A DNA stretch of 62,810 bases, counting the filler, from Rhabdomonas costata (lineage: Eukaryota): NCBI GenBank assembly GCA_019059605.1. It is 34 parts of 34 records of this genome, joined end to end, with 100 filler letters (N's around TTAATTAATTAA, not from the genome) between each part and the next. Parts side by side here need not be neighbours in the genome. Positions count along the whole stretch, not along the records: positions 59,212 to 60,960 come from JAHMHO010009620.1; 33 more parts are not named here. One strand, written 5' to 3'. Both the position numbers and the translations under genes were made by a program. Below, piece by piece: positions 31,639 to 62,810 of this stretch. The notes below the pieces were generated by a model. That model saw only the letters and a program-made list of their open reading frames with translations. It was not told where the DNA came from and ran no database searches. Every line of letters starts with the position of its first letter. Position 1 is the stretch's first letter.

Positions 31639-32681
31639 ATGTACCGCAACCAACCGTACGGAGGACCTGGGCCTTATGGCGGCCCAGGTCCTGGATACGG
31701 TGGTCCTGGATACGGTGGTCCTGGGTATGGTGGACCTGGGCCCTATGGTGGACCTGGGCCCTATGGTGGGCGAGGACGTGGACCACATGGTGGGCCCGGA
31801 CCATATGGTGGTCCTGGTCCTGGTCCTGGTCCTGGGCCCTATGGTGGGCGTGGACCTAACGGTGGTACCGGACCTTATGGGGCCCCACCTCCACTCCAGA
31901 ACCCTCAGTATGCCCCGGGCTTTGCTCCCGGTGCCCAGGTGATAATTGTTGGCACTTCCAATGCGCATTTGCCGCCCCGAGTCGCAGGTGTTGCTGTTGC
32001 TTCTGCTATGTAGGGGCTCCCTCTCTCAGCTCTTTGTCTCTCCCGCTCTTTACCGCAGTGATCAGTCGGTAATACTGCAAGCTGCATGGCGTCGTCTCAT
32101 TTCTGCTACATCCTACGGCTCCTCCGCATCCTTTCAAATGCTTAACAAGTGCCCTTCCATGATGTGTTTTGGGGATGCAATTTCTGGTTATTTCCTCTCT
32201 CTCTCTCTGCCTCCTAATTGTGAGTTTGTGATTCTTAGATAACCTCCACAGGCTTGTCCCTTTGAAGCATTGCCATTCGCACTTTGCCGCATTTGAAAAA
32301 CAATGCCCACTGTTCAGCAGTACAAAGCATGTAAGCTTCCCTAACTTTTTCGATGGATTTGATCGGACTGAGGAGCAGATGCCGCGTGATGAAAACGCCA
32401 CAGTGGGGTATTCTCTGGGTGACCTAATAGTTGGGGTGCCCGTGGGGGCCACCGTGGCTTGGAGCCGCTTCAGCGTGACGGTGACCTGCCCGTCCTGCGG
32501 GCATGCCGGGCCCACGGTGGTGCGGTACGAGCACGGCCGCGGAGCGTGGTTGATGTGTGTGGCGCTGTTCCTTGTGTTCTGGCCTCTGTGCTGGCTGCCG
32601 TTCTGCATGCGGGAGTTCAAGGACAGCGTGCACTTCTGCGAGCGTTGCAACGCGTTCATTGGCAGGCGGTATTTTATATGA
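31639..32681 (+). CDS. LITAF/SIMPLE zinc-ribbon protein with Gly-Pro-Tyr repeat N-terminus
   Basis: First exon from 31639 with GGPGPY/GGPGY repeats; last exon 32431-32681 VTCPSCG...hydrophobic stretch...LCWLPFC...KDSVHFCERC (CxxC...HxCxxC). Confidence 0.88.
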
Positions 32682-44290: not shown

Positions 44291-45320
44291 CACAGCCTCC
44301 AAGAACCCAACACACCCACCACNNNNNNNNNNNNNNNNNNNNNNNNNNNNNNNNNNNNNNNNNNNNTTAATTAATTAANNNNNNNNNNNNNNNNNNNNNN
44401 NNNNNNNNNNNNNNNNNNNNNNGGGGGGTGGTTTGCGGAATCCGATGTCAGGAACACGTGAGGTTACTTGCGGAGAGCCCTCCACCGTGATTCGGAGACG
44501 GTATGAAAGTCAATTCCTTCTTAGATCAACCAGATTGCTCTCAGAAGCAAGTGCTTCATCAGATGGCATGAGGAGTGCTGTCTGAGGAGGAGGTCTTCAG
44601 AGTGCTCGAGGCATCGGAGTGTCCCCGGACACGAGACATGCGGAGTGTCCCACGTGAGTCCACGCAGCAGCCGACATACTCAGAGAGACCTGGTCTGTGG
44701 AGAACATTGTCTCGCTTTGTTTGCCAATTTTTTCAGCCAGCTTCGCGACATCTTGATGAGAGAATTCGATTCTGAAGACAGTAGGTTGTCCCGTACCAGC
44801 CGATATCAGAGTTTTCATCAGAAAAATCAAAAAATCGATTGCCCATCCATACATCGTCCGGAAACCAGCCCAAGCGGATGATGCAGTATGGCAACCAGCA
44901 CGAGCCCAGCTAAAGCCGAGTGGACACACGTCGCTCACGCGTTGTCTTAGGACACACCAAAAGCACGTCCTTCGTCCACACCGGCAGCTCCGGTGTCTTA
45001 GAGATCAATTGCTCCACATTTGTACCTTTTGTGTGCAGTGGTTGCTGAACCGTCGAAGCATAGGATGGGAAAGGAGCTTATTCGTGTTCCTGTTGCGAAA
45101 GCTATCCGGAGTTCATTATCATCCCTCCCACCATCTCTTTCTCATTCCGAATATGTACATAACCAGCAACTGGAGTTGATTATAGTCCATCCCACCATCT
45201 CTTCCTCCTTCTGAGTATGTACATAACCAGCAACTGAATGCCACTGTGCCCACTCCCAATCATGAGTCAACCCCTCTAGTGCTCGGTACACATCCGGCTG
45301 CTCCGCAGAAGGTTTCTGAG

Positions 45321-45711
45321 GTGAAAACTCTGCTCGTGAAATGTCTCAGCAGCAAGGCTGTTTTGCCACGACGAAGCACCACACTGCCTCAGGTTTTGAC
45401 CTTGCCAGTGCAGAAGATGTGGTTATGGCAGGTGGAGACAATGCACTTATTCCCAGCATGTATGGACGCGTTGCCTCGCGCAGTTGGTCGGACTGGAAGC
45501 ACGACATTTCGGCTGGAGCGGGAGTGACTGATCAAGACTACCGAGGGAATGTGAAGATCTTGCTGTTCATCCACGGAATTAGGATTATCACGTCAAGAAG
45601 GGTGATCGTGTGGCGCAATAGCTGTTGGAGGGCATTGCGGCACCCCCCGTCCGCGTTGTTCCACAACAGCCGGGGAGCGTGCGAGGTGAAGTTGGTTTTG
45701 GATCCTATGGT
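45321..45711 (+). pseudogene. dut: Trimeric dUTPase pseudogene, intronless
   Basis: All five motifs visible: SGFDL, YGRVASRS, GVTDQDYRG, GDRVAQ, RGEVGFGSYG; two frameshifts, an in-frame TAG and a short deletion after ALIP. Confidence 0.9.
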
Positions 45712-47076
45712 ACCCTCGGCCGCTACTGGTGTTTCCAAGCAGCTAACCGCAGAAGCAATCGACCAATCGACACACGGCAATTGGACGTACGGCATGTGTC
45801 GTATTCCATTTTGGCCGCTCGGAATTGGAAAATGCTTCTTCTTGGATAGCTCTAAAGGTTGCCCTTGCGAGCAATTTTGTCTTGCCCAACGGGTTTTCAG
45901 CTAACCTTCGGGAGCTCTTCTCCAGCCAGCACCAAAACCACATGCGGTGTTCCCGCCCAGTTGGATGGAGGAGCCGCTCTCCACCATGTCTGGCTGCTAC
46001 TGTCGGGCAGAGGTGGAACATTCTGATCGGGGAAGGCGGGCGCTTGCCGCCGACACCAAACGGAAGATGGACGAAGCGTTCTGCGCGCAAAGGGGCTGAT
46101 CATGAATATTGATCCAACGCCCTCTTGCCATCCAGGTCAGACAGTACACCCAAAAAGTGCTCAAACCCAACANNNNNNNNNNNNNNNNNNNNNNNNNNNN
46201 NNNNNNNNNNNNNNNNTTAATTAATTAANNNNNNNNNNNNNNNNNNNNNNNNNNNNNNNNNNNNNNNNNNNNTTTTTGGCAGTACGCGGCGGCGTATCTT
46301 TGCTCAGTAAATAGTTTGCCGACAAAGTAGGCCAAGAACGCCGCTCTCCGTCTCCTTCCACTGGTCGGTCCTTTCCTCTTCGCGCCAAAAGTCTGCCGTT
46401 ATTGGCACGGAGGGGTTGCACCTCGATTTTGTCTGTGTTTGCTGGTGGTGTTCGTGTTTGCGTGCCCCTTTGCCGAGCACTGGGGCTTGAGACCGGGCCG
46501 TGTTTGTTTTCTGGGCGGCTCAATGCCAGGAAAAGACATTGAACCGATATGGTTGCGGACGACAGCCGGGTAGGCGGCAACGTTTCCCAATAAGGGACTT
46601 CAAGCGCGGAAGTGGGTACGGCTGCTGATTGACAGGGGATGTTTGCGGGCGGGAACGGCAAGCAAAAAAGCCGACAGAAGAACCGGGAATACCCAAAAAC
46701 CGAAACGGACAAAAGGACTACCAATCCGAAGGCAAGAAACTAAACAAACAAGACAGAGGGGCACAACGCTTTGCTGGAAAACCATCTGCGTCAGAATTGC
46801 CAACTGCTCCAGTTCGTTACTTGAGGCAATGAGAAGAGTGGCCGCAAATTCACGCTGACTATGGAGAATCATGATCCGCTCTTCGCGCCGGCACCGAAGG
46901 GTTTGGTCACATAAGATGTTATCACGCAATTTTTTTTTGTTACCTAGCAATGGAACGAACATACCCAACAGCTTGGACTTAAACCCCTACGTAGAGCCCA
47001 CTAGAAAAATATTGACAGAATGATCCGAAAAGTGCACAAAAACGAGGCAGCTCGCCAGCCACGGTACCAGCAGGCA

Positions 47077-47889
47077 TCACCGTGAGAACCGCACTGCCCA
47101 TTTCTTCACGTGCTCAGCCACCACGGGGTCGTCCAGGACTGCCATTGAGGCAAGCTGCTCCTCTGCTTCATCTGTCCTACCTACCGACGCGAGAAGCTCA
47201 ACCCGCTTCCCCAAAAACTGCACAGCAGCCAGCCGTACTCCGCGGTCGGAAAGGGAAATGAGCTTGTCTCCGGCAACAATACCAAGACTCTCCGAGGAGG
47301 CTAAGAGGTCCTCTGCACCAAAACCAACGCCCTCGCAGTGCAGGAGCAAAGCATAACCCGCGTTCAGAGCAGCTATACTGGTGGGCAGGTCGATCTGCTC
47401 TAGGAGAGCGCAAGCGCATTGTTCCAATAATTTAGAAAGGTCTGACTTCGCTTCGGCCTCAGCCGAGCGGTGAAAGTACGCGCACCGGAAAGCTTCCTCG
47501 GCGCATTTCAGCGATGCGGAGTTCAAGCCCAACCGTCCAGCTACGGATTGTTCATTTGCAATCGGGTCCACTTCCTCCATGGTCATCTGGTCTTCAGAGC
47601 ACTCCACACCCATAGGCTGCCTTGCTAGAACCCTGAGCAGAGAGGATAGGACTGGGCGAAAGGGTAGGTCATCTTGAACTGATGGCGACACCTGAAGATA
47701 CTTGCGCGATGATTGCAGAAGGCGCCGCAGAGCTTGGCACGCAGACTTCCGGTAACTTTCCTGTCCCCGCCCACATTCTTGAAGCACAATGGCGGCGCTG
47801 AGGCCAAGTTTTGGCAAAAGATGAGGAGCGGCCTCCACCGAAGGGAAGCAGCAAGTGTCGAAAAACTTTACTGCGGCGTCCAGCAGGTG
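47077..47889 (-). CDS. Terminal exon of a HEAT/ARM-repeat protein, ECM29-like
   Basis: 270-codon open exon after tttcag; IVLQECGRGQESYRKSACQALRRLL resembles the ECM29 vlkEc.k....Yk..A pattern; RGVRLAAVQFL is HEAT-like. Confidence 0.5.
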   Translation of the reverse strand, partial: HLLDAAVKFFDTCCFPSVEAAPHLLPKLGLSAAIVLQECGRGQESYRKSACQALRRLLQSSRKYLQVSPSVQDDLPFRPVLSSLLRVLARQPMGVECSEDQMTMEEVDPIANEQSVAGRLGLNSASLKCAEEAFRCAYFHRSAEAEAKSDLSKLLEQCACALLEQIDLPTSIAALNAGYALLLHCEGVGFGAEDLLASSESLGIVAGDKLISLSDRGVRLAAVQFLGKRVELLASVGRTDEAEEQLASMAVLDDPVVAEHVKKWAVRFSR

Positions 47890-48554
47890 CTGAAAATGCA
47901 AAATATATCAAATTAGCGCACGAGCGAAAGCAACCCAAAAATGACACAAAATAGGCACAACCCCGCAGGCAACACATGTACGATTCATTCCACCTCCGTA
48001 AAACGCCGATCACCCAACAACNNNNNNNNNNNNNNNNNNNNNNNNNNNNNNNNNNNNNNNNNNNNTTAATTAATTAANNNNNNNNNNNNNNNNNNNNNNN
48101 NNNNNNNNNNNNNNNNNNNNNGGGGGGTGGTGTGAACAAATTGGTGGTTTTCGACCTCTATTGAAACCTCTGAAAGTGGACGGTGGCTCATAACATCTAT
48201 CTCAGCATTTGTTGATCCCCCCAATTGACGGTGTTTGGTGCAGAAGGATAAATCTCCATAAGAGGAAGTGGGACATTTGCCTAAGGTTCGGAAGTGGCCT
48301 GTGAAGCCAGAAAGTTCCACAGAGTTGTGTGAGTGGCGTGTGATGGCGGAAGATCTTTCAGAGGAGATGTCATAGGATTGTGCAGAAACAACGGTCAACA
48401 GTATTTGGAGAGTGGCACGTAATACCCCCGTTCCGTTGTTCGTCTTGCCATTACAGTGGAACTTAAGGGAGGTGATTGAGTTACTTTCAGATCTTCCAGA
48501 CCATCACCACCTCATCCGTTGATGTTCCTTCCGTTGTGGGTTTGGAATAAACAG

Positions 48555-53004: not shown

Positions 53005-53919
53005 CTGTGGGGGACGGAGAAGCCAGGTGGGGGGCGAGTCATCCACCGTATTCCAGAAAGTGCCCCCACATAAAAACATAAAACATTAAGCAGGGCTGCA
53101 CTGCACACAGACTTGCATTTTGTTTGAAGACAGACAATTACTGCACTGCACTTTGTGAAGTTTCATCGCATTGAATTTTGAATGGAATTGGAATAAAATT
53201 GAATCGGAATTGAATTTGACTTGATTTTTTCCTTGATTTTTTTTTTTGCTACGATCATGACATTGAACTCTGAACTGTTGACATTGAATCGAATTGATCG
53301 GTGTAACCCCGCCAAAATGCCCCCTGACCTCTCGAAAGGACTGGAAAGCAACATCCTTCACGAGGAAAACCAAGGGAGCAGTCAACGGTCAAGGGGGCAG
53401 CAGTCACACGAAGGAAAGACAGGAAACAGAACAGTGCCAAGGGTGCGCATGACGCCTCGAAAACGTGCCCAAGCACAGTTGACACGCGCACCACGTGCAC
53501 AACCCAGTTGACAGTTGCTGTGTGCTGAAGCCCCAGCTGGGGAGCACTTTGTCTTGGAGAAAGTCNNNNNNNNNNNNNNNNNNNNNNNNNNNNNNNNNNN
53601 NNNNNNNNNTTAATTAATTAANNNNNNNNNNNNNNNNNNNNNNNNNNNNNNNNNNNNNNNNNNNNGGGTTACTTCTTTGTCCTGGTTACAATTTTCCTCC
53701 CTCTCCCTCCCACTTCCCGCACTTATCCCGTTTTTTTTTGCCGCACGCTTGCCCGCTCAGTTGAACAATCCCATGGACGTGGTTGCTCAGTGTGGTCGCT
53801 TCTCTTTCAAAAAAAAAAAAACAGAGAGCCCTGAGGCTCAAAGTGGTCACGGATTTCCGCCCCGAGGTGGTGCACTAACCCTCCTCTTCAAAGGCAGAGA
53901 GTGAGAGAGAGAGGCGCAC

Positions 53920-55032
53920 CTTGGAACCGCATTTCCGGATAGCGTACATCAATGGATATACATCATCCTTGTCACGAACATCCAGTTTCGCCTTCAACTC
54001 CAGCAGCTTTGCGAACATTTCGACGCGATCGTACTCAATGGCAAACATCAAAGGGGTCTTCATGTCTTTGTCGCGGCCCTCAATGTCCGCCTTCGCTTGC
54101 AGCAGCCTCTCAAAGATCTCCAGGAAGCCACCGATAATGGCGTAAATCAGGGGCGTCTTTCCAGTCTCGTCTGCCAGATTGACGTCTGGGGATGTCCTGC
54201 CCAGAAGGTTCTCAAGCACCTCCACGACGCCCTTCTCGACGGCAGAGATGATCGGGGTGTGGCCATGGGCATCTTGGACGTTTGGGTCAATTGGGCAGCT
54301 GAGGAGCCGTAGCACTCCACCCTGGTCGCGGTTGCGGAGCATCGTGCTCAGGGTCCTGCCATTGCACTGGGCCTGGTCCTGAACCCAACTGAGGGCATCC
54401 TGTTCCTTGGCCTCGTCCAGCTCAAACACCTTCCATTTTGCAAACCGCGACGGATCAAAAAGAGGAAATGGGAAATGCACACAACTTCTTTTCTGGAATT
54501 TTCCTGTCCATGCCGCCTGCCTACAGCACGGCTTTTACCCTTTTCACCTCATCCCAACAGCAGCCCCCCGCCCCAACCACACACACACACTCCCCCCACT
54601 TTCGCTTTAAGGCCGTGCGCGAAAATACACAAGTGTTGTGCATTTTACTTCCAAGCAGCACCTTTGCGGTGCCTGCGGATACTGTGCTGCCCAGTGGTTT
54701 GTGACGGTTGTCCTACCGCGATGAAAGAAAATTTGGGAGCGAAGCGACGAAACTGTGCTTTTTGTCCCCAGTGTTGCGCCAAGCACTGAGCCGGAATTCT
54801 TTCGCTACGTTCAGCGCTGTACTCCGGTCCCGGCGGTCGGACTGTGGCTCCCCCCGCCTTCCGCTGTGAATGTTCAAGAGTGCAGAGAGGTGCGGGCTTC
54901 GGAAACACATACAACGACACAGACCTCGACGCTGTCCAAGTTGCGGTGCAGTTGGCTTTCCAGGAACTTCTTGCTTGCATGGCCCAGTTGCTGAACCACC
55001 TTGAACCAGGTGTTAAAGCGGAACAGTACCTC
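53920..55032 (-). CDS. Ankyrin-repeat protein, two exons
   Basis: Exon 54925-55032 and exon 53920-54429 with four repeats (GHTPIISA, GKTPLIYA, MKTPLMFA, VYPLMYA). Confidence 0.9.
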
Positions 55033-58390: not shown

Positions 58391-59211
58391 GACCATCTCG
58401 GGCGGCGAAAGCCAGAGGCAAATACAGATGCATCACAGACGGCTGGGTGGCGGGTGGACTTCGACCCCAGACATACGGCGGTGGAGTCTGAAGGTCAATG
58501 CACACGAATAAAAAATAGCACCAACAGCAGGCAAGTGCCCACCTGGGTGAAGCAGGGGGTGGTGGGAGAACATGTACTCCTCAGAACCTTCACTGCAGAC
58601 ACCGTTCTCACCCGACGTGGTGTGCATAGACCCAGAGACTCTTTCTGTCTCAGAAATCCAAGAAAAAGTCAGAAAGTCAGAGATAAAAAAAATTGCCTTG
58701 ACAATGAACTCATATGTGCAAAAAAAAAACATTACGCAAAAAGCATGACAATGAATCGTTCCAAGTGTCATCCCAAGGAAGATCCCATGTTGGAAGCTTA
58801 CGGGGTCGCTCGAGTGGGGCCTTCCTTAGTGGTTCCCAGAATCATAAAGCAGTATAAGCAGCTGCACAATAAGAAGCTGTCAATGGGGAAAAAAAGAGCG
58901 GCACTGAGGCTGATGGGGCCTCACAAGTTAACGTCGTCTATCCAGCAAAGAAACATGTCCGTTTCTCGTCGGGACCATGTGAAGCAAAATAAGGCAGCTT
59001 GGGAAAGCTTGAATTGCCGCAAATAAACCCTACCACAACCACCGCACAACAACACATTACAAAGCCCCTTGGTGACATCAGCGACACACTGCCAAAGCAG
59101 CAAAAACCACANNNNNNNNNNNNNNNNNNNNNNNNNNNNNNNNNNNNNNNNNNNNTTAATTAATTAANNNNNNNNNNNNNNNNNNNNNNNNNNNNNNNNN
59201 NNNNNNNNNNN

Positions 59212-60960
59212 GGCTGCTTTGGTAACCACCCCAGTATGGGCACCGGGGAAGGACCACCTTCGATGGCCTGTTTCAGCCTGGAGAACACAAAAGACTCGTC
59301 TTTTCTGAGTGCAATCATTATTTCGTTTGGGTTCCCCAGGTGCGGATGACTTCTTTGACGACGGCTTTTGCGGTGTCATTCCCGCACTTAAAAAAAAAAG
59401 AAACAAACCAAATATAAATCTAACCTGAACATATGAACGTACTGAACTAACTGAAACCTGTTCTTCTCTTGCTGTCCGTGTGGAGGCTTTATTGCTGCTC
59501 CAATTCTGAGCATTCAGGATGCAGGGGGAGGGGGGGGGGCGAAATTTTGCAACGGGCCGACGCGAAAAATGCGGTGTACAAATAGGCAAAATCCGAATTG
59601 CGTTTCAAGCCAAAATTCCGCCTGGGGTCGAATTTGTCCTCAACATCCCTATTTTTTCATCATCCCTATCAACATTCCTATTTTTTTCCACCTCAGACAT
59701 GAATAAATGCCAAAATTAGATTCAGCAGAAAAACCGGACATCGAATATGTCAAACAAAAACCTGCAAAAAAAAGTTGCAGAAATACGCATTGGACTTTTC
59801 GTCCCCTCTTCCCTCTTCAAGCGCAAACTCCGCAGAAACCAAAAAGCACAAACCAGAGGAAGTGGGTGGGACCGGCAACCTTGTTCAGAATTACACCGGC
59901 CACGTGCACCTCAGGGTCGAAGGTGACAAAACCGTGCAAAACAGCAGCGGCGCTCCTGTACGTGGTAGGGGGAAATACAGGCTGGGGGGGAGGATGACTC
60001 CACTATTTTACTATTTACTAAACAAACTGACACGAACAAAAACGCACGAATCTTCTCCTCAAAACCTTGCCATTGCACCACAATCAATGATAAGAATAAC
60101 GGGTAACTCCAGCCATTTTGCGATTTCAGCGGTGGAACCAACATCGGAACAGCCGTCTCGTCCGTCGAACAGTCCCATGACACCCTCAACCACAGCCAAT
60201 TCCGGGCGACCAAAACGTAGAGCTCGATAGAAAAGAGACCGTACTGTCGATTTTCCACCTGAAGAAGAAGTGCGCCCTGTGTCGAAGTCAAGGATATTGA
60301 CGACCGAAGGGTTGTGATTACTATCACAAATGCACTTTTTCCGTGCAAGTGTGTAGGTGATGCGTTGGCACACTGCGGTGAAAAACACTGCAACCTATGT
60401 CTAAACTTTGAAGCTCGCCGGACTAAGGCCACTATCCCTTGTTGTCTCCTCTCTCACTCCAACACCGTCCAACGATAGTTGTGCCCAGCTTCTGACGTGC
60501 TCAAACCCACCATCCTTTTGCGAATGTGCTGCCGAAACACCGCCGCTACGAAGCCTTAAAGAAAAAAAAGACAAGACAGCGCCCCCAAAACTACCAGCCA
60601 GAAAGCCATCCAAATTCACCGAAGGAGCACCGCAAGCGAGACTGTGGTGCATTCCATCAATGAAATCAGGTCTAAAGGAAAGAGAGAAGAAGGCAAGAAA
60701 GGAATGCAGCCCGCCAGTGCTGACGGCTCTACGTCGTGCAAATTCAGCCCATACAATGCAAACCCTGTAATTGGGACGACCCACCGACAGCAGGGTGTGA
60801 AGTAGCAAACAAAAACAAGCACCACAAACAGGCACAGGCACAAACACCCCACTTTGAAGGGCTGGACAGAATGTCCCCGGCGGCGGAGTGCTGCCATGAG
60901 TCCCGTGGCAACAGACGTTTTTCCCGAGCCACTGCATGGAGCCGCAAGCAAAACACAGAA
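59212..60960 (-). CDS. cbiA: Cobyrinate/hydrogenobyrinate a,c-diamide synthase (CbiA/CobB family), N-terminal half, five exons
   Basis: Exons 60848-60960, 60595-60671, 60066-60258, 59854-59955, 59212-59277 splice in frame via four GT-AG introns: [56 protein letters not shown]. Confidence 0.93.
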
Positions 60961-61060
60961 NNNNNNNNNNNNNNNNNNNNNNNNNNNNNNNNNNNNNNNN
61001 NNNNTTAATTAATTAANNNNNNNNNNNNNNNNNNNNNNNNNNNNNNNNNNNNNNNNNNNN

Positions 61061-62810
61061 GTTGGTTGGTAGTGTAGGTGTAGCAGTAGGTGTAGCAGTA
61101 GGTGTAGCAGTAGGTGTTGTTGTTGGGCTAATCGGGTGTTGTGGGCTAATGCTGTGCTTGTGTCTGGGTTCAGGGCTAATCATGTGCTTGTGTCTGGGTT
61201 CAGGGCTAATCATGTGCTGGTGTCAGGGTTCTGGGCTAATCACGTGCTGGGCTAATCTGTTGTTGTTGTCCTTGTCCTTATGCTTAGTGTTACGCGTTAC
61301 GTTACTGTTAGTGTTCCTGTTTCTGTGCGTAGGGTTTGTGGTAGTGTGGTTGTTGGTGCTTAGCGTGTTGGTTGATGCGTTGATGGTTACGGTGTCAGGG
61401 GCTGTGGTGCGTTGGGTTGATGGCTTGTTGTGTTGAGGCGAAGGGTGTCATGGTCGTAGCGTTGGTTGTAGCGTTGGTGTCACTGTTAGGTCCGAGGGGT
61501 GTGGTGTGATGGCTTGAGGGTTTAGCGTGAGGGTCAGGAGATCAAGAACCCCAACATCTCAGTCCCCCTGTAGCCTCAGCCCTCCCTTGGCATCGACCGT
61601 AGGCAGATGATAAGGAGAGGGATGAGTGGTGAATGCTACGTACCACCTTAGGGTGGGGAGTAGCATGAACCACCACATCTAGGGAGCATCGAGCGTAGCG
61701 AGATGCGACCAGCAAAGAACCCCACTTTACTTGTCGGCCCTCACTTCAGTTCGTGCCTCCCCCTTCTCTTTTTACTCTTTTAACCCATACGTGTCCCCAA
61801 GTCGAGGAGCATCACGTATCGGGTCTATGCATTGGGTCTTGAAGGCATGAAGGCATGAGTCACGCAGTGGGTCATGCCGTAATAGAGAGTAGAAGGCATC
61901 ATCACCCCAAGGGCCACCGGCAGGTAGGTTTAGCCTTTACTCCCTTTTAGCCCGTAACCGTGAAGCGGTGGACCACGCATTTAGGAGCGAGGAACGCAGT
62001 GACGACCGACATCAAGAACATCTTTTATGCCTTAACCCCTCACTTGTCGGGTCTCTCAGTCCTTCGAGCCCCTCCCCTTCACTCTCTACACCTGTCTCTT
62101 CGTTCCACACCCCACCATAAGGTGGTACGTGTCACTCCGACCGGGCGTAGCCACAGGAAGAGAACTCAGGGTAAGGTTGAGGTTTAGGTCTCACTTTAGC
62201 ACGTAGGCATGGTCGGTACGGACATGCCGGAGTAGTGAAGGCACCTGCGGTAGTAAAGGCGTCAGCGAGCCATGCGGAGTAGGAGGCAAGAAACATCCCC
62301 TGGGTCTTTCTCTTACGTGGGCATCTTTCACCCCTCATAGTCATGCTGAGTTACTGCATTCTTCACTCATAGTCATGCTGATACGTTAACCCTCACACCC
62401 TACCTCACGAACCCCTCGAAGCATGAAACCCACACAGAATGCCTAAACCCACAACCTTAGCCCTCAACACGTAAACCCTCTGACACCAACTACCCTACAG
62501 CCATGAACCCACGAAGCAAGAACACAACAAGCGCTAACCCTACGACCCAACGACCCAAGAACACGAAGCCTGAAACCCACGTAGCATGAAACCCTCGTAG
62601 CCTGACACCCTGAAACCTGAGACCGTAGCACCATGACATCCTGAGACCTTACGCACTGACCCTCACCCTCCAACACAAACACTCCCTGAGAGCCTCAAAC
62701 CCACACACCCTTCGCCGAAACACAACAAACCCTCATCCTACGCACAACAACAACAGGAACACTAACGGTAACGCTAAGCACTAACAGGAACACATACAGG
62801 TACAGAGAGC
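61061..62810. repeat. Fold-back-like element: GT-rich left arm, CA-rich right arm, 12-bp and 30-bp tandem repeats
   Basis: gtaggtgtagca x3.5 (61074-61117); 30-bp unit x4 (61143-61255); 61301-61321 matches the reverse complement of 62752-62772 at 20/21. Confidence 0.7.

Follow-up and report, generated by a model that had tools for sequence, protein, structure and literature searches.

The window, i.e. the whole stretch of DNA analysed here (62,810 nt from Rhabdomonas costata, assembly GCA_019059605.1), consists of 34 contigs of 1741-1759 bp each, which are sorted approximately by falling length and joined by 33 linkers of the form 44 N + TTAATTAATTAA + 44 N (the first, for example, at 1759-1858). 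One of these contigs, at positions 59212-60960 (1749 bp), is filled over its whole length by a fragment of a gene on the minus strand that encodes a homologue of CbiA/CobB, an a,c-diamide synthase of the bacterial vitamin B12 pathway. The five exons, 551 nt in total and separated by four GT-AG introns, form an open frame of 183 codons in which the family motifs appear in their usual order, exactly as claimed in the original prediction. The 183-residue translation of the five joined exons is referred to below as the window peptide. Since positions 59212 and 60960 are contig ends beside linkers, the gene is truncated on both sides, and since the contigs are joined by linkers, the other parts of the window do not form a genomic neighbourhood of the gene.

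Structure of the gene fragment

The features of the contig are, in the direction of the gene:

60961-61060, no strand: assembly linker closing the contig on the 5' side of the gene
60848-60960, minus strand: exon 1, 113 nt, reaching to the contig end; from the P-loop SGSGKT through FKVG; matched by NF002204 at positions 4-38 (43.5 bits), by Pfam CbiA PF01656 (33.3 bits) and by tblastn
60672-60847, minus strand: intron 1, 176 nt, GT..AG; retention shifts the frame
60595-60671, minus strand: exon 2, 77 nt; from PDFID to the NLD motif; matched by NF002204 at positions 40-63 (24.3 bits) and by tblastn
60259-60594, minus strand: intron 2, 336 nt, GT..AG; retention introduces two in-frame stops
60066-60258, minus strand: exon 3, 193 nt; PVILIID strand; matched by NF002204 at positions 67-125 (61.3 bits) and by tblastn
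59956-60065, minus strand: intron 3, 110 nt, GT..AG; retention shifts the frame and introduces three stops
59854-59955, minus strand: exon 4, 102 nt; RSAAA, GVILNKV and H..W; matched by NF002204 at positions 127-158 (35.0 bits) and by tblastn
59278-59853, minus strand: intron 4, 576 nt, GT..AG; retention introduces six in-frame stops
59212-59277, minus strand: exon 5, 66 nt up to the contig end, where it is truncated; L.QAIE and PILG.LPK, at family positions of about 165-187
59112-59211, no strand: assembly linker closing the contig on the 3' side of the gene

A pyrimidine-rich tract precedes the AG in all four introns, and the GC content is 55 % in the exons and 46 % in the introns. Intron 1 interrupts the Gly codon of FKVG/PDFID after its second base. 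Exon 5, which contributes 21 amino acids (AAs), gave no match to the NCBIfam models when scanned alone; its tblastn matches are weak (E 0.8 and 2.9) and collinear with those of the other exons, and the conserved Gly and Pro columns are kept.

The contig begins at family position 3-4, and the CbiA module of the relatives begins at residues 2-18. Because exon 1 aligns from this position, the start codon is expected just beyond the contig. On the other side, the contig ends within the ATPase domain, and neither GATase_3 nor any further fused domain is contained in it.

A separate observation on intron positions was made for the protein P0048 (817 AA), a read-through gene call on a 57.7-kb Logan contig. 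Its homology begins at ADFIDP, where the cDNA-type relative P0095 has GPDFIDP. This difference suggests, from the protein only, that this green-alga-like relative has an intron within one codon of the position of intron 1 in the window.

Assignment to the CbiA/CobB family

The contig very probably carries the first five exons of a real, intact eukaryotic nuclear gene, a member of a clade of CbiA/CobB-type a,c-diamide synthases that extends across eukaryotes. This degree of confidence refers to the identity of the gene and not to the substrate of its product. The exons encode the N-terminal P-loop domain, which would bind ATP and activate the substrate carboxylates, with the conserved residues of the family intact.

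In a scan of the single exons against NCBIfam, exons 1 to 4 are collinear on the curated CobB model NF002204 and cover model positions 4-158. The bit scores of the exons sum to 164 over 155 of the 420 model positions, and this sum comes from separately scanned pieces, while the cut-off of 254 bits applies to whole proteins. For exon 1, the Pfam CbiA score also exceeds the cut-off of that model (33.3 vs 25.4 bits). The homology was also recovered by tblastn against the contig: the queries P0003 and P0095 detected the five exons in the correct order, and P0108 and P0074 detected exons 1 to 4. The joined window peptide aligns to P0003 with 214 bits (E 9e-66), and its identity to the best homologues is 53-61 %. 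Together, these matches bear out the identification as a homologue of the CbiA/CobB-type a,c-diamide synthases. When 237 family proteins were compared with the whole window by tblastn, none of the 617 high-scoring segment pairs (HSPs) lay outside the gene contig.

The earlier impression that the gene is maintained also held. In an alignment with 183 homologues, 50 of the 53 columns with a conservation of at least 85 % are kept in the window peptide, the three changes being V to L, D to E and V to I, and the frame contains neither stops nor frameshifts.

A database search with exon 3 returned 1019 proteins at E<=0.001. Most of them are bacterial-type CbiA/CobB proteins of 430-490 residues, and a few are much longer proteins with eukaryote-like low-complexity linkers. 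This search yielded no protein above 83 % identity, a level reached on partial matches only. Similarly, a scan of metagenome contigs, from which 80 loci were kept, yielded no locus above 80 % identity, again a level reached on partial matches only, so that neither search provided a copy of the same lineage with the remainder of the gene.

Two related enzymes were considered as alternative identities and rejected. The first is the Ni-sirohydrochlorin a,c-diamide synthase CfbB (NF033195), which shares the fold and the a,c-amidation chemistry of CbiA/CobB and acts on a different macrocycle. Its model gives substantial scores on the window exons and on the relatives. However, it is outscored by the CobB model on each matched exon, with 31.8, 14.1, 56.9 and 34.8 bits vs 43.5, 24.3, 61.3 and 35.0 bits for exons 1 to 4, and the relatives remain far below its cut-off of 560 bits. 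The second, CobQ/CbiP (NF001989 and TIGR00313), matches exon 1 only, with 21.3 and 18.4 bits, well under the CobB score.

Eukaryotic family and domain architecture

The original prediction implied a rare gene and a lone acquisition. This did not hold, since the window gene falls inside the clade of a broad eukaryotic family. Members of this family were collected by a search with P0095 as the query, restricted to proteins of 767-2442 residues. They were found in green algae (Nannochloris, Micractinium, Auxenochlorella, Prototheca, Trebouxia, Tetraselmis, Chloropicon, Bryopsis and Monoraphidium), streptophyte algae (Mesostigma, Chlorokybus and Mesotaenium), liverworts (Marchantia and Riccia), mosses (Physcomitrium and Ceratodon), lycophytes (Selaginella and Diphasiastrum), oomycetes (Aphanomyces, Saprolegnia, Achlya and Thraustotheca) and dinoflagellates (Prorocentrum and Polarella), and in Chromera velia.

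According to Pfam, the domain order of the eukaryotic members is CbiA, GATase_3 and Peripla_BP_2. A Kelch propeller and DUF5522 are added in the oomycete and dinoflagellate members, and a PH domain in Chromera. The full-length members P0095, P0144, P0152, P0149 and P0140 all exceed the cut-off of the CobB model NF002204 (409-469 vs 254 bits), and all five fall below the cut-off of the CfbB model (336-397 vs 560 bits). The ECGG nucleophile motif can be recognised in the sequences of P0095, P0068 and P0003. By analogy with these members, the complete window protein would be expected to continue into GATase_3, a disordered linker and a class-III periplasmic-binding protein (PBP) domain of the heme/B12-binding structural type; the PBP domain of the clade members does not lie on the window contig.

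The window peptide shares with bacterial CbiA/CobB (NF002204 and TIGR00379; PF01656 and PF07685) the same N-terminal ATPase motifs in the same order, and it is 53-61 % identical to its best bacterial-type matches. Unlike the bacterial genes, the window gene has four spliceosomal-type introns and is placed in the eukaryotic clade, whose members carry a C-terminal Peripla_BP_2 domain, with or without Kelch and DUF5522, and occur in organisms that are not known to make B12. In comparison with the eukaryotic fusion proteins of Marchantia polymorpha (P0140), Mesostigma (P0144), Aphanomyces invadans (P0148), Prorocentrum cordatum (P0152) and Chromera velia (P0216), the window gene falls in the same clade and, as the contig suggests, may also have its CbiA module at the extreme N-terminus. 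The window peptide matches P0144 of Mesostigma best (203 bits, 56 % identity). Nevertheless, the window peptide is only 53-57 % identical to the fusion proteins and branches at or near their base on a long branch.

A different kind of fusion was observed in P0208 and P0210. In these bacterial-type proteins of about 1070 AAs, TonB-dependent receptor domains (PF07715 and PF00593) occur together with the CbiA/CobB module. This arrangement may link the enzyme to external corrinoid uptake, or it may stem from read-through in gene calling.

Phylogenetic placement

For the trees, 237 proteins were fetched, 183 of which cover nearly all of the window peptide. The members from Trebouxia, Physcomitrium, Chloropicon and Ceratodon were left out due to incomplete N-termini. 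After the removal of rows with at least 80 % identity, 113 rows and 178 columns were used. Group labels were taken from protein names and Pfam lists, so that the eukaryotic origin of unnamed rows is inferred from their architecture.

The careful tree groups the window peptide with 52 other rows, namely 32 PBP-fused and 19 Kelch-fused proteins and P0003, in a clade of 53 with a bootstrap support of 99 and a Shimodaira-Hasegawa-like approximate likelihood ratio test (SH-aLRT) value of 87. The quick tree places it in a clade of 56 rows, which comprises all 32 PBP-fused proteins, all 19 Kelch-fused proteins, four short rows and the window peptide (SH-aLRT 97). Membership of the window peptide in the eukaryotic clade thus appears well supported. 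Within the clade, the window peptide is sister to the other 52 rows in the careful tree (82/78), whereas in the quick tree it is part of a polytomy among rows of the green lineage.

The eukaryotic clade forms one branch among bacterial sequences in the trees, which supports a bacterial ancestry of the gene, in line with the proposed horizontal origin. A cluster look-up of the bacterial-type rows nearest to the eukaryotic clade gave no donor candidate.

Structure of the fused binding domain

A structural model of the Marchantia member P0140 was built with AlphaFold on an alignment of 37 family members. Its confident regions are residues 1-505 and 678-1007, which are separated by a disordered linker. 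For the enzyme part, the fold search matched only distant folds of the CTP synthase and GatD type. When P0140 was compared with the PDB at the sequence level, no solved CbiA/CobB structure was obtained, and the only matches were two weak ones to PBPs.

The best PDB folds for the C-terminal domain, with template modelling (TM) scores of 0.76-0.84, are the heme binders PhuT, ShuT, RhuT and BhuT (2r79 and 2r7a being among the heme binders), the B12-binding protein BtuF (5ysc and 1n2z) and 4m7o, an uncharacterised, possibly iron-binding protein. The named siderophore, metal and molybdate binders and most binders of unnamed ligands score lower, at TM 0.56-0.72, with 5joq (TM 0.83) as an exception among the latter. 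BtuF and the PhuT/ShuT/RhuT/BhuT group are thus among the nearest solved folds of this domain. In contrast to these class-III periplasmic binding proteins, the domain of P0140 is fused to an enzyme of intracellular type, has only weak sequence similarity to them, and comes without a signal peptide or an ABC transporter partner domain among the Pfam matches.

Apart from the fold, the alignment of the 37 eukaryotic members (A1) shows invariant positions W871, W934 and G956 (P0140 numbering) in the fused binding domain, and its consensus contains several conserved Cys residues in this domain, e.g. in a D.C..C stretch.

Proposed function and alternative explanations

Bacterial CbiA/CobB uses glutamine-derived ammonia and ATP to turn the a and c acetate side chains into amides. 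The most likely function of the eukaryotic family is therefore considered to be an ATP- and glutamine-dependent amidation of a tetrapyrrole, probably of a corrinoid. In such a mechanism, the glutaminase domain would free ammonia from glutamine, the N-terminal domain would activate the a and c acetate side chains of the tetrapyrrole at the expense of ATP so that they become amides, and the tethered binding domain could capture or present the macrocycle.

A corrinoid is the most economical substrate, as the scores are of the CobB type, the fused domain has a BtuF-like fold and many lineages with the gene require B12. The enzyme could then serve the salvage or completion of incompletely amidated corrinoids that are acquired from bacteria. 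This is the leading candidate among the substrates, although it is put forward tentatively and at somewhat less than even chances. A more specific and more doubtful version is that the fusion of CbiA/CobB with the PBP domain acts as a working corrinoid processor, in which the B12-type domain captures incompletely amidated bacterial corrinoids and the amidotransferase finishes or repairs them. If true, this would be an unrecognised late-stage step of B12 salvage in many eukaryotes, including lineages that are scored as B12 non-users, and the window would show a corrinoid-processing gene in a deep-branching, poorly sampled eukaryote.

Several points weigh against a corrinoid substrate. Mosses and lycophytes (Physcomitrium, Ceratodon, Selaginella and Diphasiastrum) are among the holders of the gene, and in a B12 survey of plants and algae (PMC11439496), hornworts are reported as the only land plants with METH, and two accessory proteins are reported for liverworts. 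At the sequence level, the PBP domain matches solved BtuF only weakly (E 0.007), and heme-type and B12-type binders are not distinguished by the fold search. Other points limit the assignment of the window gene as a whole. Its GATase and PBP parts are unseen, with none of the 617 HSPs beyond the contig. The window peptide has a long terminal branch (0.74-0.9 vs a median of 0.25) and its placement inside the clade is unstable between the careful and the quick tree. The bootstrap stopped short of full convergence (correlation 0.972). The bacterial rows are biased, as they were chosen by shared words with exon 3 or as long fusions, and closer bacterial relatives than those sampled may exist.

The strongest competing explanation is that the enzyme acts on another tetrapyrrole, for example one of the sirohydrochlorin/siroheme type or a heme derivative, and that the B12 label is a carry-over from bacterial annotation. 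This would fit the presence of the family in land-plant lineages for which the same survey (PMC11439496) reports no detected B12 metabolism. It would also fit the fold search, where heme binders (2r79, 2r7a, RhuT and BhuT) are level with BtuF. In addition, the paralogue CfbB shows that the amidation of a non-corrin macrocycle is possible on this fold, and its model scores only about 15-20 % below the CobB model on the eukaryotic proteins. On the other hand, all five tested eukaryotic members pass the CobB equivalog cut-off and fail that of CfbB, and the CobB model is ahead on each of the four matched window exons. An amidated siroheme or heme derivative is not known in these eukaryotes. A non-corrinoid substrate is regarded as unlikely; it is the main competitor of the corrinoid.

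With regard to the locus itself, the contig might come from a second eukaryote in the sequenced material, such as an alga or an oomycete. It is an unplaced contig of 1.7 kb that is unlinked to anything, and the family is common in algae and oomycetes, which are frequent companions of other samples. However, its trinucleotide composition is mid-range, with rank 17 of 34 for the distance from the rest of the window, and its ratio of observed to expected CpG is similar to that of the other contigs (0.83 vs a window median of 0.78). The composition thus shows no foreign source, although this is weak evidence from 1.7 kb only. The peptide is also no nearer than 53-61 % to the best-matching sampled eukaryotic or bacterial proteins, and the metagenome scan, with no match above 80 % identity, a level reached on partial matches only, argues against a familiar contaminant. 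A second eukaryote is an improbable source.

Less probable still is that the locus is a decaying relic, i.e. a pseudogene, or a partial copy that arose by duplication and lacks the glutaminase half. The long terminal branch would be compatible with this, as would the fact that only 183 codons are visible. By contrast, 551 nt of exon sequence without a stop or frameshift, four intact pairs of splice sites and the preserved conserved columns (50 of 53, with three conservative changes) speak for an intact gene.

An organism with a partial or complete de novo cobalamin pathway, in which the gene would provide one step, is very improbable, even though the gene is of the true CbiA/CobB type. The same gene is found in numerous eukaryotes that are considered incapable of B12 synthesis, and no other gene of the pathway was found in the window, which comprises 62.8 kb of unlinked contigs and was searched for the CbiA/CobB family alone. 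The window gene is therefore not evidence for de novo B12 synthesis, and the probability assigned to this function is at most very small.

Bacterial contamination and a fortuitous arrangement of open frames have nothing in their favour beyond the bacterial ancestry of the family. They are refuted by the four spliceosomal-type introns, which interrupt conserved motifs and each break the frame if kept, by exons that are collinear on the model, and by the joined score of 214 bits; the introns had already been cited against contamination in the original prediction.

Relation to previous reports

Among the papers searched, only PMC4057078 mentions a eukaryotic protein of this kind, and only in passing: for the haptophyte Chrysochromulina brevifilum, it notes a predicted protein similar to CobB, and because the other pathway genes are missing, it judges these algae unable to make cobalamin. 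PMC11439496, a survey of 13 B12-related proteins in plants and algae, contains none of the words cobyrinic, cobB, cbiA, diamide and periplasmic, so that the family is absent from it. Term searches likewise gave no mention of a eukaryotic CbiA/CobB in a diatom preprint on horizontal gene transfer (10.1101/2020.01.24.918219), PMC6731263, PMC12614181, PMC5023847 and the 2026 preprint 10.64898/2026.08.07.738727. No functional study of a eukaryotic CbiA/CobB was found in the full-text literature, a search that did not extend to subscription journals and supplementary files and that in part ranked papers by their number of matching terms, a weak basis for a negative. Whether the gene belongs to an already characterised eukaryotic clade, which would remove its novelty, had been raised as a question at the outset. 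The answer is divided: the clade is catalogued in databases, and no sign of its characterisation was found.

The window gene is thus one more fragmentary and divergent member of a family that is already present in public databases. The family is more interesting than this single gene, as it combines a true CbiA/CobB-type enzyme and conserved catalytic motifs with a fused binding domain of the heme/B12 type. If the family processes corrinoids, the scoring of B12 dependence and salvage in eukaryotes would change. Furthermore, the use of cbiA/cobB as markers for B12 producers in metagenomes and metatranscriptomes may catch these eukaryotic genes.

Other features of the window

A scan of the whole window with Rfam gave no matches, and a scan for the dinoflagellate spliced-leader motif, with up to two mismatches allowed, gave none either. 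Among 20 long open reading frames of the window searched with Pfam, only an ankyrin-repeat frame and a dUTPase fragment were matched. The former is a frame of 219 AAs on the minus strand (53878-54534) with 72.9 bits to Ank_2 and matches to several other Ank models. The latter lies in an open frame on the plus strand (45320-45901) and covers only part of the domain, matching profile positions 7-88 of 129 of the dUTPase model PF00692 with 33.7 bits. Just upstream of this frame (45108-45258) there is a 64-bp tandem repeat, and the locus may be part of a mobile element.

A further open frame of 276 AAs on the minus strand (47080-47907) is coding-like and resembles HEAT repeats by language-model features (0.94, a score of low recognition value). 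No homologue was found for it at E<=0.001 among proteins of 484-2000 residues, and in Atlas it leads to generic eukaryotic HEAT clusters only. The organism may be part of a lineage with little sequence sampling.

Tandem repeats were also observed at two other sites. In the contig next to that of the CbiA/CobB gene, positions 61074-61248, right beside the linker, contain a 12-bp unit perfectly repeated in 3.7 copies and a 30-bp unit in 3.5 copies with 92 % matches. At 31687-31880, overlapping tandem repeats of 15, 18 and 36 bp are rich in GGN/CCN codons and could encode a repeat protein rich in Gly, Pro and Tyr.

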